Assembly (NCBI GenBank): GCA_017546315.1
Contig: JAFYXH010000012.1
Span: 7,617 to 71,616 of the forward strand
DNA from: Alphaproteobacteria bacterium
Lineage (GTDB): Bacteria > Pseudomonadota > Alphaproteobacteria > RF32 > CAG-239
Direction of reading: 5' to 3'
Length of the DNA stretch: 64,000 nt
Shown here piece by piece: positions 11,092 through 20,213 of this stretch (position 1 is the stretch's first letter; every line of letters begins with the position of its first letter). Below the pieces are notes generated by a model. The model was not told where the DNA came from, made no database searches, and saw only the letters and a program-made list of their open reading frames with translations. The translations under genes were made by a program, and so were the position numbers.

Positions 11092-11136
11092 TTTTTAAGA
11101 AAAAATTAAGTAATTATATAACTTTAGATTAAAAAT

Positions 11137-11166
11137 AAGGGCATCTAGTAAAAAGATGCCCTTATT
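11137..11166 (+). terminator. hairpin terminator after gatB
   Basis: AAGGGCATC-loop-GATGCCCTT followed by a T-rich stretch. Confidence 0.6.
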
Positions 11167-11251
11167 AACATAGTCATTAGTTTTATATCCACTTTATAAT
11201 GCTAAAACAGTATTTTATATTATTTTCGTATTTTTTAGAGAGGAGTAAATA

Positions 11252-11446
11252 ATGAATAAAGTAAATATTGCAAATTATGTGGTTTTTGATTTATCCAACA
11301 GATTTATTGGTCTTGAGAATAACCATATTGATAATGAAATTATTAAGATGATTGCTGATAATTGGCACAAAAAGCACTCTGTTGGCAACTTAAATAAAAA
11401 TGTGAAATACAATCATCATAATACTAAACAAAGTCTTTTAATGTAA
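11252..11446 (+). CDS. small hypothetical protein (64 aa)
   Basis: Strong Shine-Dalgarno GAGAGGAG upstream of the ATG. No recognisable domain. Confidence 0.4.
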   Translation: MNKVNIANYVVFDLSNRFIGLENNHIDNEIIKMIADNWHKKHSVGNLNKNVKYNHHNTKQSLLM

Positions 11447-11547
11447 TTTTTTCAAATTTCAATATAACAATATTTAGAGCTTTAAAATGCATAAAACGTC
11501 CATATTTTTAGTTTGTTTGACTTAAATAATTATTGCGAGGTGGTAAT

Positions 11548-15952: not shown

Positions 15953-17398
15953 ATGGCAACAAAACCTGAAATTAAAGATGAGAGCGGAGAAAATTACAAA
16001 TTTGGTTTTGTAACTGATATAGAAACCGAGATTATCCCAAAAGGATTAAATGAGGATATTATTAGGCTTATTTCTCAGAAAAAAGAAGAGCCTGAGTGGC
16101 TATTGGAATCTAGGTTGAAAGCATATCGCAAGTGGCTAACTATGGTTGAGCCTACTTGGGCAAAAGTTTCTTATGATAAGATAGATTATCAAGATTTATT
16201 TTATTATTCTGCTCCTAAGCAAAAGATTACCCCTCAGAGTTTGGATGAGGTGGATCCTAAATTGCTTGAAACATATAATAAACTTGGTATTCCATTAAAA
16301 GAGCAAGAAGTTTTGGCTGGGGTTGTTGCTGTTGATGCGGTGTTTGATAGTGTGTCTGTCGCGACAACTTATAAAGCTCAACTAAAAAAGCAAGGAATTA
16401 TATTTTGTTCTATATCTGAGGCGGTGAAAGAATATCCAAGTTTAGTCAAAAAATATTTAGGTTCAGTTGTTCCTTATACTGATAATTTTTTTGCTGCACT
16501 TAATTCTGCGGTGTTTACAGATGGTAGTTTTGTGTATATTCCTAAAGGGGTAAAATGCCCGATGGAATTATCTACTTATTTTCGTATAAATGCAAAGAAT
16601 ACAGGGCAATTTGAAAGAACTCTTATTGTGGCAGATGAGGGGAGTTATGTATCTTATCTTGAGGGGTGCACTGCTCCACAAAGAGATGAAAATCAGCTCC
16701 ATGCGGCTATTGTTGAGATTTTTGTTCATAAAGATGCCGAAGTTAAGTATTCTACTGTTCAAAACTGGTATCCTGGGGACAAGGATGGAAAGGGTGGAGT
16801 TTATAACTTTGTTACCAAACGTGCTTTATGTGATGGTGAAAACTCAAAAGTTTCTTGGACACAAGTTGAAACAGGGTCTGCGGTTACCTGGAAATACCCA
16901 TCTTGTGTGCTTAAAGGGGATGGGGCTAAAGGAGAGTTCTATTCTGTGGCATTGACCAACAACTATCAACAAGCAGATACTGGAACTAAGATGATCCATT
17001 TGGGTAAAAATACTAGTTCTAGAATTATATCTAAGGGTATTTCTGCCGGATTTTCTGACCAAACTTATAGAGGACTTGTTAAAGTTTCTAAAAATGCAAG
17101 TGGGGCTCGCAATTATTCTCAATGTGATAGTTTGTTGATTGGTAGGACTTGTGGTTCTCACACTGTGCCTTATATTGAAAATGCTTCTAAATCTGCAATT
17201 TTGGAGCACGAGGCTACAACATCTAAGATTAGTGATGAGCAATTGTTTTATTGCAAGCAAAGAGGTATGAGCGAAGAAGATGCTGTGGGATTGATTGTTA
17301 ATGGATTTTGCAAAGAAGTTATGCAAAAATTGCCAATGGAATTTGCTATTGAGGCAACTAAATTGATAGAGATTTCGTTAGAGGGAAGTGTTGGATAG
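15953..17398 (+). CDS. sufB: Fe-S cluster assembly scaffold SufB
   Basis: 481 aa with near-canonical SufB sequence ([40 protein letters not shown]). Confidence 0.95.
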
Positions 17399-17404
17399 AT
17401 TGGA

Positions 17405-17701
17405 CTATCTATACCTATAATATTGATTGCTTATGTTTTGAGCAGGGCGACTTTGGTAATTATTTTTTTTGCATACATAAACTAGATTTCTTGCTCCTAC
17501 CCATTCGCTAGATACTTTATCTTTTACATCAAAACCAAATGGACAATCTTCTTTGGCTTTCATATAACAATCACCAAGGCTTAATGCTGAGCCATTACAG
17601 CTTGCTTCGTATACTGTTTGTCCGTTTTCATCCATATATAGAACTCTTGAATATGCGCAAGATGTGACAAATAACAAAATTAAAACTATTGCCTTTTTCA
17701 T
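17405..17701 (-). CDS. small Cys-containing lipoprotein, family unknown (paralog A)
   Basis: Signal peptide with lipobox LFVTSC, four further Cys, C-terminal YYRYR. Strongly similar to the ORF at 18744-19055. Confidence 0.7.
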   Translation of the reverse strand: MKKAIVLILLFVTSCAYSRVLYMDENGQTVYEASCNGSALSLGDCYMKAKEDCPFGFDVKDKVSSEWVGARNLVYVCKKNNYQSRPAQNISNQYYRYR

Positions 17702-17726
17702 TTTATAACCTCTTTGATAAAAACAT

Positions 17727-17991
17727 AAAAAAATCGCCTTAAAGAGGCGATCGGAGAGTTAGAAAATCATGTTAGTAGAAATGACCGTTCAGGCCTTTAA
17801 AACTCGCAAAGGAGTTTCTGGACATACGCAAGAACCTCCCCGACCATTGTCGGGGATATATCTATTGATACCTAAAATTTATAGGTAGCAATATGACGAT
17901 ACTATATCCAGCACCGCGGTAAACAAAAGAGCTTTCTACGACTCCGAACCAACCTCTTGGTTCTAATATGGCAGATCTAGTCCGCCATACT
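17727..17991 (-). ncRNA. unclassified structured leader RNA (candidate riboswitch/attenuator), copy A
   Basis: Bounded by the promoter at 17998-18026 and the terminator ATCGCCT/AGGCGAT plus U7 at 17751-17727. Contains several hairpins conserved or compensated in copy B. Only 25 nt with an AGAGG SD separate it from the lipoprotein ATG. Confidence 0.6.
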
Positions 17992-17997
17992 CACTCT

Positions 17998-18026
17998 AGT
18001 TTAGCAAAATCGTCAACATTAGTCAA
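17998..18026 (-). promoter_or_regulatory. sigma70-like promoter of leader RNA A
   Basis: TTGACT, 17 nt, TAAACT on the minus strand. Copy B has the same -35 and spacing. Confidence 0.5.
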
Positions 18027-18148
18027 GAGTATTATTTTTTGTTAGCATTAACCTAATAATGCTATAAAAATTTATGATGATTTTAATGATTGTGTTAGTA
18101 TTAAATTAAACGATTGTTTATGATGAGATAAAATTTTAATATTTTATA

Positions 18149-18176
18149 TTGACTAATAGACAAAATGATTTATTGT
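18149..18176 (+). promoter_or_regulatory. sigma70-like promoter of divergent ORF A
   Basis: TTGACT, 16 nt, TATTGT. The homologous copy B site is TTGACT, 16 nt, TATAAT. The two share TTGACTnATAGACAAAA. Confidence 0.5.
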
Positions 18177-18202
18177 ATAGGCAAAATAAATTTTTTTATA
18201 TT

Positions 18203-18685
18203 ATGATTATGGGAAAACAAAACACATCTGTTGGGCAAAATTCGCTCGACTTGGTTTCGGCAAAAGTTTCTAAACTTTTCAAGGGTGTTGAACTTTCAGT
18301 TAAGACTGAAGCGGTTGTTCACTATCTTTACAAAAGAAAAAATCTTCACTTTAGTTTGACTGAAGCGGAAGAAGAAGAACTCTTCTCTGTATTGAACAAA
18401 GTTCTTGAGCCGAAAGAGGCTTTTGTAATGCTTAGAGAATATATTGAGCAATATGGAGTTAAGTCTTCGGAAGCAAAGAAAATTTTTGCAAACTTGAAGC
18501 GCTCTTTTGAGGTTTCTCTCAACTTTAAGGAAGCAGAATTGATGGCTAACAGCGAAGAATTACCTGACTGTTTGACAACTTTTACGCCTCCGAGCAACAA
18601 TATGCCAGAAAACGCCATCGTTAGTGATGAAGAACTGCAAAGTATTGTAAAAGAAGTTGAAGCTGAAATTGAAAACAGCAACTAA
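18203..18685 (+). CDS. hypothetical acidic helical protein (paralog A of divergent ORF)
   Basis: ATG at 18203/18209; the track's TTG start at 18149 is the -35 box. The core EAVVHYLYKRKNLHFSLTEAEEEELFSVLNKVLEPKEAFVMLREYIEQYG aligns with 19507-20154. Confidence 0.6.
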   Translation: MIMGKQNTSVGQNSLDLVSAKVSKLFKGVELSVKTEAVVHYLYKRKNLHFSLTEAEEEELFSVLNKVLEPKEAFVMLREYIEQYGVKSSEAKKIFANLKRSFEVSLNFKEAELMANSEELPDCLTTFTPPSNNMPENAIVSDEELQSIVKEVEAEIENSN

Positions 18686-18714
18686 GTTCAGCTAATATTT
18701 TTGGCTTAAAGATT

Positions 18715-18745
18715 AAACGGATACATTAGATGTATCCGTTTTTTT
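18715..18745 (+). terminator. intrinsic terminator (11-bp stem, T7), shared 3' end with lipoprotein B
   Basis: AAACGGATACA-loop-TGTATCCGTTT followed by TTTTT. A homologous terminator follows ORF B. Confidence 0.85.
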
Positions 18746-19055
18746 ATTTATATCTGTAATATTGGGTGGGTTGATATTGGGGACTTGATGTTTGATATTG
18801 GGTGTTGAGTGTCCTGTTGTTTCTGCATGAATATATCAACTTTCTGGAGCCAACCCATTCACTTGCGACCTTATCTTTGACTTCAAAACCATTTGGACAG
18901 TCTTCTCTTGCCTTTTTATAACAATCACCAATACTTAAAACCTCACCATCACAACCTGCTTCATAAACCATTTGACCATATTCATCCATATATAAAGGTC
19001 TTGAATATGAACATGCAGTACATAATAGAACTGCTAATATTGATATTTTTTTCAT
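18744..19055 (-). CDS. small Cys-containing lipoprotein, family unknown (paralog B)
   Basis: Starts MKKISILAVLLCTAC (lipobox) at 19055. The track ORF extends to 19184, but only by reading through the terminator and leader RNA. Confidence 0.7.
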   Translation of the reverse strand: MKKISILAVLLCTACSYSRPLYMDEYGQMVYEAGCDGEVLSIGDCYKKAREDCPNGFEVKDKVASEWVGSRKLIYSCRNNRTLNTQYQTSSPQYQPTQYYRYK

Positions 19056-19079
19056 AACCCTCTCCTTGCATAAAAACAT

Positions 19080-19343
19080 AAAAAAATCGCCTAAAAGAGG
19101 CGATCGGAGAGTTAGAAAAATCACACACATAAGATGACCGTCCAAGCCTTTAAAACTCACAAAGGAGTTTCTGGACATACGCAAGAACCTCCCCGACCAT
19201 TGTCGGGGATATATTTATTGTTATCTAAAAATTACAGATAACAATATGACGATGTTATATCCGCACCGTATGTGTTTAAAAGAGCTTTCTACGACTCCGA
19301 ACCAACCTCTTGGTTCTAACATAGTTAATGTGTTAACTATGCT
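19080..19343 (-). ncRNA. unclassified structured leader RNA, copy B
   Basis: Same promoter, hairpin and terminator order as copy A. Long near-identical blocks, with compensatory substitutions in the variable stems. Confidence 0.6.
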
Positions 19344-19349
19344 TTTTCG

Positions 19350-19378
19350 AAGATAGCAGAATCATCAACATTAGTCAA
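19350..19378 (-). promoter_or_regulatory. sigma70-like promoter of leader RNA B
   Basis: TTGACT, 17 nt, TATCTT on the minus strand. Confidence 0.5.
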
Positions 19379-19441
19379 GAGCATTATTACATATAACAAA
19401 CGAGCAGAAATTTGAGAAAAACAAAAAATTTAACAAGTTTA

Positions 19442-19469
19442 TTGACTTATAGACAAAAAGTAATATAAT
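19442..19469 (+). promoter_or_regulatory. sigma70-like promoter of divergent ORF B
   Basis: TTGACT, 16 nt, TATAAT (consensus hexamers). Confidence 0.6.
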
Positions 19470-19506
19470 CGTGCTACAAAAATATAATTTATAAAATTTT
19501 TTACTT

Positions 19507-20154
19507 ATGAGAAAATTATTATTTATTATTCCTTGGTGGAATGATTGTATTTGTGAAAGGGTTGATTCTTTATTAAAGGAGCAAGACATTAGCCCTAGAA
19601 TTGAAGCTATTATCTTCTATATCTACAAAGAAAAGAGATTGCCTTTTGTGCCATCTAATTTAGAAGAAACGGAAGTTTTTGACGTTTTGGAAAGATGTAT
19701 TGGACCTAAGGAAACTATAAAGGTGTTAAATAATTATTTTCACAAGTGCGGTTTTCCATCTAATCATTCAGCTTTTTTGTTAAACAAGCTTGTTAATTCG
19801 TATAACATTTCTGTGGAAACTTTGGAGACATTTAATGCTCTGAAGGATGCAAAAGATTCTACTGTTGATGAGTGTACTTTGGACTATATTGATAGAAAAG
19901 AGCAAGAACTTGTCTGTAATATTAAGTATTATCTGAAGTGTCAAAAAAACAAGTATGGTAAAAGGGCTCTTTGCGAAATTGAAAAGGACGTTTGGCTTGA
20001 CATTAGATGTCTTTGGGATGTGGTCGATAGTAGCAAAAATGAAGTTGAGTTTTTTAAGATTAAGAAACTTTTTAATGTTCTAAAGAAGGCTGTTAGCAAT
20101 GGTGAAAATAACATTCATCATGTTATCATGGATTTTATCGAACCCAAAAGATGA
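19507..20154 (+). CDS. hypothetical protein (paralog B of divergent ORF)
   Basis: The core EAIIFYIYKEKRLPFVPSNLEETEVFDVLERCIGPKETIKVLNNYFHKCG aligns with ORF A (about one third identical by hand alignment). The C-terminal half is unique. Confidence 0.55.
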   Translation: MRKLLFIIPWWNDCICERVDSLLKEQDISPRIEAIIFYIYKEKRLPFVPSNLEETEVFDVLERCIGPKETIKVLNNYFHKCGFPSNHSAFLLNKLVNSYNISVETLETFNALKDAKDSTVDECTLDYIDRKEQELVCNIKYYLKCQKNKYGKRALCEIEKDVWLDIRCLWDVVDSSKNEVEFFKIKKLFNVLKKAVSNGENNIHHVIMDFIEPKR

Positions 20155-20172
20155 AAATGCTCTAAACACAAA

Positions 20173-20203
20173 AAACGGATACTTAAACAGTATCCGTTTT
20201 TTA
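20173..20203 (+). terminator. intrinsic terminator
   Basis: ACGGATAC-loop-GTATCCGT followed by TTTTTT. Homologous to the terminator at 18715. Confidence 0.85.
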
Positions 20204-20213
20204 TTTGAAATGT

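Follow-up and report, generated by a model that had tools for sequence, protein, structure and literature searches.

A conserved, unclassified leader RNA with the layout of a transcription attenuator precedes envelope-protein genes in gut Alphaproteobacteria

We analysed a 64-kb stretch of DNA, the window (contig JAFYXH010000012.1, positions 7,617-71,616 of the forward strand, assembly GCA_017546315.1), from an Alphaproteobacteria bacterium (RF32; CAG-239). Directly 5' of a small lipoprotein gene in this window lies a leader RNA of about 265 nucleotides (nt), here called copy A, and the 64 kb hold two such units of leader, terminator and close ATG, the other being copy B. Our analysis confirms that the leader is a real, unclassified and strongly conserved folded RNA family. 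It keeps a constant place before genes for envelope proteins, and two of its segments, one inside a hairpin and one overlapping the terminator, are complementary to each other. We consider it probable, judging from this layout of anti-antiterminator, antiterminator and terminator, that the leader is a cis-acting transcription attenuator.

Relatives of the leader were collected by three routes: contigs encoding homologues of the window lipoprotein, a conserved-block scan of species-representative genomes (12 loci, all in metagenome-assembled genomes (MAGs) of gut Alphaproteobacteria from human, deer and other sources), and a two-block pattern scan of metagenomes (31 loci). They were profiled with nhmmer. 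The family comprises about 60 instances with 34 distinct sequences, in MAGs of gut Alphaproteobacteria and in metagenomes. The structure predicted by RNAalifold from 26 distinct sequences has 66 pairs. In the alignment, 97.4% of the cells of these pairs are paired, compared with 40-45% when the partners were slid, and 17 pairs show two-sided changes, a number reached by none of 500 shuffles (covariation score 0.229, at most 0.069 in controls). That the leader is structured, as the original prediction held, is thus borne out by covariation in an alignment of homologues. Copy A has a minimum free energy of -95.6 kcal/mol (z = -5.75 against shuffles) and copy B folds with z = -7.3.

The RNA is predicted to fold into two 5' hairpins, H1 and H2, followed by a domain closed by helices P1 and P2 and carrying the arms P3, P4, P5 and P7 (Table 1). 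P1 (GGAG..UAGAAAR with UUUUCUA..CUCC) is invariant apart from an A-U/G-U exchange at one pair. P2, a long-range helix of 8 base pairs (bp), differs in nearly every lineage and keeps its complementarity, with covariation in 8 of 8 pairs. P7, whose loop measures 2-6 nt, was recovered in 29 of 29 members and includes an exchange of A-U for G-C; P5 is invariant except for one compensated pair. The terminator begins directly after P1 and its stem covaries as well (GAUCGCC/GGCGAUU versus GACUGCC/GGCGGUU). G-U pairs are numerous in the helices, and this fixes the transcribed strand. Hairpins H1, H2 and P5 had already been proposed with the boundaries of Table 1, and an AU-rich stem proposed at 17865-17891 is P4, slightly extended. 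P1 and P2 were absent from the original prediction. Another hairpin drawn by RNAalifold, P6 (AGGUUCU/AGAAGCU), was set aside, as it lacks covariation and clashes with the covarying P7; it is possibly an alternative conformer. A possible contact between the P3 loop GGAUAU and AUAUCC is 99% paired and invariant.

The sequence itself is also under constraint. Between genomes, the four-fold degenerate sites of the adjacent topA gene are 26-58% identical and saturated in most comparisons, whereas the leader core is 67-93% identical between the same genomes and its long blocks are 100% identical. Conservation of the leader therefore reflects purifying selection on the RNA sequence and not recent shared ancestry.

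This family matches no described RNA class. Neither copy matched any of the 4227 covariance models of Rfam 15 at the gathering score. A permissive search of 17350-19550 found nothing at E<=10 in the leaders, and six other members gave nothing at E<=1; the leader therefore stands as unclassified, as had been supposed. There is no Rfam match to the T-box model in particular, and the cargo is unrelated to amino-acid metabolism. An ARAGORN scan for tRNA and tmRNA found one tRNA-Ser, elsewhere in the window. Conserved strings of the leader were not found in the literature searched, nor was anything found in the first 200 of the 408 supplementary files of Fremin and Bhatt 2021.

Behind each complete leader stands a gene with a Shine-Dalgarno sequence, oriented like the leader itself. 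Its ATG lies 17-26 nt from the U-run, or 39 nt in a single exception, and no promoter-like site of the gene's own was detected between leader and gene. In copy A this distance is 25 nt, as originally described, including an AGAGG Shine-Dalgarno; a search between its terminator and the ATG (17701) detected no promoter-like site. The terminator, first placed at 17751-17727, is one nucleotide longer in our map, and the region holds six terminator-like sites where 1.1 are expected. These observations support the proposal of a terminator-based expression platform on whose read-through the gene would depend. The -35 box CTTGACTAAT recurs at a matching position in many homologues, and the putative copy A promoter, which scores 9/12 with a TG extension, would start transcription near 17991.

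Almost all instances occupy one slot, topA -> leader -> cargo <- sufB. The cargo is a small four-cysteine lipoprotein (as in the window), a TRL-family lipoprotein (PF13146), a pilin-like protein of 200-219 amino acids (aa) with a prepilin-type N-terminus and a weak PF07963 match (named type II secretion protein at NCBI), another lipoprotein, or a membrane protein whose tail is SHOCT-like. This slot is a hot spot in which the leader is kept and the cargo swapped between species; genes without known function are sometimes inserted there on the opposite strand. Genomes carry one to three leader copies, mostly in that one syntenic slot, and extra copies lie outside it in loci L007, L014, L017 and L053.

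The evidence for a switch comes from the junction between P1 and the terminator. An unbiased scan for partners of this junction, run on each leader, returned GGUCGGGGAGGUU as the best every time. This segment is the 3' strand of P5 plus AG, and its pairing with the junction is worth -18.3 kcal/mol, compared with -10 for the P1a strand and -9.5 +/- 2 for shuffles, of which at most 0.5% are as good. The predicted helix of 10 bp between GGUCGGGGAG (region 2) and CUCUCCGAUC (region 3) would draw on four nucleotides at the end of P1 and four at the start of the terminator stem. Pairing holds in 260 of 260 cells, and both terminator variants as well as the variant of locus L021 preserve it. Three alternative pairings thus appear in the sequence, 1:2 (P5), 2:3 (antiterminator) and 3:4 (terminator), with region 3 lying over the terminator, which suggests mutually exclusive terminator and antiterminator states. 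This would explain the invariance of P1a and P5, each of whose strands has two partners. The switch had originally been sought at 17794-17817, where two exclusive pairings were proposed. One of them, AAACUC/GAGUUU, is the conserved P7, whereas the other, CCUUU/AAAGG, is absent from most members, and the conserved alternative pairing is instead the 10-bp helix described here, which had been missed. Two other candidate partners of the terminator 5' strand, the 3' strand of H2 and AAAGGC..CGGUC, gave weak and inconsistent pairing and were rejected.

Leaders of the same design precede other genes in these bacteria. The pilin-like cargo belongs to a family of at least 7929 clusters, each MAG having many paralogues. 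Gaps of 250-330 nt lie upstream of other paralogues (loci L057-L060), and the nhmmer profile of the window family, family 1, matched none of these gaps. They hold leaders with a TTGACA promoter, a 5' hairpin, covarying long-range closing helices and inner hairpins, whose terminator is flush with the closing helix and is followed by about 20 nt to Shine-Dalgarno and ATG. These sister leaders form at least two families unrelated in sequence, several per genome, and their junction sequences are unrelated to those of family 1. Here too the junction overlapping the terminator has a perfect complement in the 3' strand of an inner hairpin (-16.7 to -18.2 kcal/mol versus -7 to -9 for shuffles, none of 200 reaching the observed value). 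The 9-bp antiterminator is paired in 100% of cells with two-sided changes in three pairs, and slid controls give 19-50% (four sequences); the structure of the terminator state is 96.4% paired with six two-sided changes. By analogy, these sister leaders make the antiterminator of family 1 credible.

We propose the following mechanism. The leader would be the 5' part of the lipoprotein mRNA, made from its own sigma70-type promoter. In the OFF state P5 (CCCCGAC/GUCGGGG), P1 and the terminator (3:4) would form and transcription would halt 25 nt before the ATG, with P5 acting as anti-antiterminator. In the ON state region 2 would pair with region 3, the terminator would be blocked and RNA polymerase would enter the gene. 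The antiterminator duplex was calculated at -15 kcal/mol, comparable with the sum of P5 (-12.7) and the terminator (-10). As the terminator state is thermodynamically favoured, termination is expected to be the default, and an effector would have to tip the balance.

Several points speak against the attenuator. First, forcing the antiterminator into a nested fold costs 13-22 kcal/mol relative to the terminator state, so that read-through would need a factor, a pseudoknot or kinetic control. Second, both antiterminator strands are invariant in family 1, so that this helix shows no covariation, and the covariation of the sister antiterminator comes from four sequences alone, orthologous and paralogous together. 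Third, 11 promoter-like sites were found in this AT-rich region where 11.0 are expected. The hexamers of the promoter first proposed (TTGACT-17-TAAACT) are present and its -35 box is conserved, but the hexamers alone are at chance level, and the promoter call consequently rests on conservation in relatives. Finally, 4 of the 8 P2 pairs are mismatched in copy A, which may be partly defective or differently tuned.

The riboswitch, a special case of the attenuator in which the junction closed by P1/P2 would bind a small molecule or second messenger and set the choice between terminator and antiterminator, is the alternative that survives best, although we regard it as rather unlikely. Several features speak for it: the domain is large and multi-helix, the unpaired J5/7, J7/2 and P3 loop are near-invariant beside freely covarying stems, a GNRA tetraloop closes H2 in 19 of 29 relatives, and the expression platform abuts P1. 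Cyclic di-GMP (c-di-GMP) riboswitches are known to control pilin and adhesin genes, such as pilA1 of Clostridioides difficile, and a cyclic dinucleotide would suit the pilin and surface-protein cargo. However, the known aptamer classes give no match, the family does not extend beyond one narrow lineage, and the genes controlled code for structural envelope proteins rather than for transporters or enzymes that would indicate a ligand. Moreover, sister leaders in the same genomes keep the architecture and share no junction sequence, which is hard to fit with one pocket. As the junction sequences are unrelated between families, a protein, an RNA or a structural or kinetic input is more likely than one pocket for a small molecule, and we lean slightly towards a trans-acting protein or RNA as the effector of the attenuator.

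It is improbable that the element chiefly yields an independent small RNA of about 265 nt that acts in trans, with an unrelated gene behind it or one reached by incidental read-through. Promoter, compact stable fold and strong terminator do delimit a discrete RNA whose default thermodynamic state is the terminated one, and some genomes have two or three copies. But a trans-acting RNA would be expected at variable orientation and distance, and all complete members have a gene in the same orientation at 17-39 nt, which carries a Shine-Dalgarno and no detected promoter; the conserved antiterminator that overlaps the terminator also fits poorly with a free RNA.

Attenuation coupled to translation of an upstream open reading frame (ORF) is very improbable. 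One such frame would run AUG-GUC-GGG-GAG... from the P5 loop (MVGEVLAYVQKL), and the conserved block does have its three variable sites at spacings of 9 and 6 nt, synonymous in this frame; these sites are, however, the unpaired positions of a predicted hairpin, and the AUG lacks a Shine-Dalgarno, lies inside a hairpin and is CUG in L053, so this frame was rejected. The other would start at an AUG 9 nt after GGAGG in J5/7. Although GGAGG-N9-AUG is invariant, the peptide changes at codons two (S/F/Y) and four (N/S). Frames and stops after the fifth codon differ, as the P7 loop varies from 2 to 6 nt, leaving no constant geometry to the terminator, and the sister leaders have no equivalent ORF. 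The candidates thus lack the Shine-Dalgarno or the conserved frame and stop of a trp-type leader peptide.

A DNA repeat without RNA function, be it like a miniature inverted-repeat transposable element (MITE) or a site of cargo-swapping recombination, is scarcely credible: P1 and P2 resemble imperfect inverted repeats about 150 nt apart, cargo differs between species at one syntenic slot, and copy A and L037 look recombinant (see below), but the many G-U pairs can be understood only for the transcribed strand, every leader has the same orientation and a constant distance to its gene, internal hairpins and terminator covary, one to three copies per genome are not what MITE or repetitive extragenic palindromic (REP) elements show, no match was found in viral contigs, phage records or plasmids, and no transposase or integrase was found near the leader.

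Table 1. Positions of the leader elements and associated genes (window coordinates, except for the sister leaders, which are given by locus)
Feature	Position	Strand	Remarks
Copy A leader RNA, about 265 nt	17727-18026 (flagged stretch)	minus	directly 5' of the lipoprotein gene
Copy A putative promoter	17998-18026	minus	-35 TTGACT 18021-18026; 17-nt spacer; -10 TAAACT 17998-18003
H1, 5' hairpin	17967-17989	minus	sequence and register vary across the family
H2 hairpin, GAACCAA-GAGG-UUGGUUC	17946-17963	minus	3 pairs with two-sided changes
P1 5' strand, GGAG (P1a) + UAGAAAG (P1b)	17932-17945	minus	partner 17753-17766
P2 5' strand, GUUUACCG	17917-17924	minus	partner 17771-17778
P3 hairpin, CGGUGCU-GGAUAU-AGUAUCG	17897-17916	minus	conserved GGAUAU loop; G-U/G-C and U-A exchanges
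P4, AU-rich hairpin	17863-17893	minus	3 pairs with two-sided changes
P5 hairpin, CCCCGAC-AAUG-GUCGGGG	17838-17855	minus	region 1, 5' strand; region 2, 3' strand
Predicted antiterminator 5' strand (region 2), GGUCGGGGAG	17836-17845	minus	scan energy -18.3 kcal/mol; 260/260 cells paired
J5/7 joining strand, AGGUUCUUGCGUAUGUCCAG	17818-17837	minus	almost invariant; 3 variable sites family-wide
P7 hairpin, AAACUC-CUUUGC-GAGUUU	17800-17817	minus	29/29 members
J7/2 joining strand, UAAAGGC..ACGGUCAU	17781-17799	minus	conserved
3' strands of P2, P1b and P1a	17753-17778	minus	P2 17771-17778; P1b 17760-17766; P1a 17753-17756
Predicted antiterminator 3' strand (region 3), CUCUCCGAUC	17749-17758	minus	overlaps P1a and first 4 nt of terminator stem
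Predicted intrinsic terminator, GAUCGCCU-CUUUA-AGGCGAUU then U7	17727-17752	minus	
Segments of the predicted switch			region 1 CCCCGAC; region 2 GUCGGGGAG; region 3 CUCUCC
Shine-Dalgarno AGAGG and small lipoprotein gene, 98 aa	17405-17713	minus	AGAGG 17709-17713; ATG 17701
Copy B leader (promoter, H1, H2, P1-P7, terminator)	19073-19378	minus	putative promoter 19350-19378; H1 19320-19341; P2 19269-19275 with 19125-19131; terminator 19080-19105
Paralogous small lipoprotein gene 3' of copy B, 103 aa	18744-19055	minus	58% identical to copy A cargo
topA-sufB hot spot	17405-20213		also in L001, L008-L016, L018-L044, L046-L052, L054-L055
Sister leaders, L057	8850-9042; 9785-9977; 6658-6960(-)		
Sister leaders, L058	9782-9997; 14953-15168(-)		
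Sister leaders, L059	9770-9985; 6507-6696(-)		
Sister leader, L060	9785-9979		

Copy A deserves separate comment. Its P2 5' strand is the allele of L018, while its 3' strand, CUACUAAC, is that of L013 and L034, so the copy looks recombinant within the leader. The mismatch is real, since the sequence, mismatch included, is identical in the independent assembly L055. In copy A the two states are also closest in energy, 12.7 kcal/mol apart, and its termination may be less tight. A related case is found in L037 (3820-4094, minus strand), whose 5' part differs, the 5' strand of H2/P1 being replaced so that P1 cannot form, and whose 3' two-thirds match the L008 type exactly; recombination or a chimeric assembly may be the cause.

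The second copy announced by the original prediction is copy B, 87% identical to copy A, with compensatory changes in H1 and P4 and an intact P2. In the lineage of the window, a tandem duplication spans the leader, the lipoprotein and a lineage-specific neighbour gene, and identity between the duplicates falls from 87% for the leaders to 58% for the lipoproteins and 32% for the neighbour proteins. The two paralogous neighbour genes (18203-18685 and 19507-20154, both on the plus strand) lie in divergent orientation, one beside each leader copy. They have no match in Pfam or NCBIfam and no relative in the other loci fetched; being without family match and confined to the lineage of the window, they were rejected as dedicated regulators.

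The window lipoprotein has 19 homologue clusters in total, all from alphaproteobacterial MAGs or metagenomes. Its AlphaFold model (mean predicted local distance difference test, pLDDT, 68.5) has the order beta-beta-alpha-beta-beta, and a comparison with the PDB gave no match with an E-value below 0.07. Unrelated small lipoprotein cargos share Tyr/Arg-rich C-termini (QYYRYR, QYYRYK, NYRY, YRYYE and QDQYIR; window 17405-17425 and 18744-18770, and L015, L021 and L023), a common tail that hints at a sorting or anchoring signal.

Other features were noted in passing. At 18648-18753 (plus strand) a sub-threshold match to the L20 leader (24.5 bits, E = 0.059) is actually the hairpin AAACGGAUACAUUAGAUGUAUCCGUUU, which lies between the convergent gene 18203-18685 and the lipoprotein gene of copy B and is probably a bidirectional terminator. 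A perfect 13-bp hairpin with U-run at 32359-32400 (plus strand), 12 nt before the next gene start (32407, plus strand), looks like an ordinary inter-operon terminator unusually near a start codon. The gaps 11092-11532 (441 nt) and 63041-63584 (544 nt) are without ORF of at least 70 aa.

It is tempting to go further, although we hold this wider proposal to be doubtful. The window family and the two or more sister families might form a lineage-specific superfamily of large attenuator leaders that gates a fast-changing repertoire of surface proteins, which may include thousands of pilin-like paralogue clusters and swappable lipoproteins. Its members could be new riboswitch classes for a shared signal, e.g. 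a second messenger, or recognition modules of a system of selective expression (surface variation) with specific antitermination factors.

If the attenuator holds, the leader would represent a new family of large structured attenuator RNAs and, together with the sister leaders, a superfamily, in abundant and uncultured bacteria of the human and animal gut. It would control the genes likeliest to face the host, phages and neighbouring cells, namely those of pilin-like proteins and surface lipoproteins. A conserved leader with exchangeable cargo at the topA-sufB slot could thus provide a handle on surface variation and on its signal or factor, and the leader is a well-supported orphan candidate for the discovery of a riboswitch or an antiterminator.

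The leader shares features with several known systems. Like the transcriptional riboswitches for ZTP, fluoride and SAM-I, it has a covarying domain directly 5' of the terminator, and the 3' strand of the closing helix takes part in the alternative pairing; unlike them, it matches no Rfam class, and its gene associations suggest no metabolite. With c-di-GMP riboswitches it has in common a terminator-bearing leader that would gate genes of surface appendages and surface proteins, a likeness that is functional only, as neither the GEMM-I nor the c-di-GMP-II model matches. Specialised NusG paralogues (UpxY in Bacteroides capsule loci, LoaP, RfaH/ops) recognise locus-specific 5' leaders. In those systems, as in the arrangement proposed here, leader families precede variable surface genes, read-through of a terminator decides expression and several families occur per genome; their recognition elements are short, whereas ours is a folded domain of 265 nt with an RNA antiterminator, and no protein of this kind was identified. 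PyrR-type and other three-structure attenuators (the pyr leaders of Bacillus, the logic of trp) differ in controlling biosynthetic enzymes instead of envelope proteins, and in that the 1:2 hairpin is here one arm of a multi-helix domain of about 190 nt with long-range closing helices; inspection of the leader showed no PyrR binding loop, TRAP triplet repeats or conserved leader peptide. The pairing scheme is nevertheless the same: there are 1:2, 2:3 and 3:4 pairings, the 1:2 hairpin ties up the antiterminator strand, region 3 extends into the terminator, and the state with 1:2 formed would be the one that terminates.

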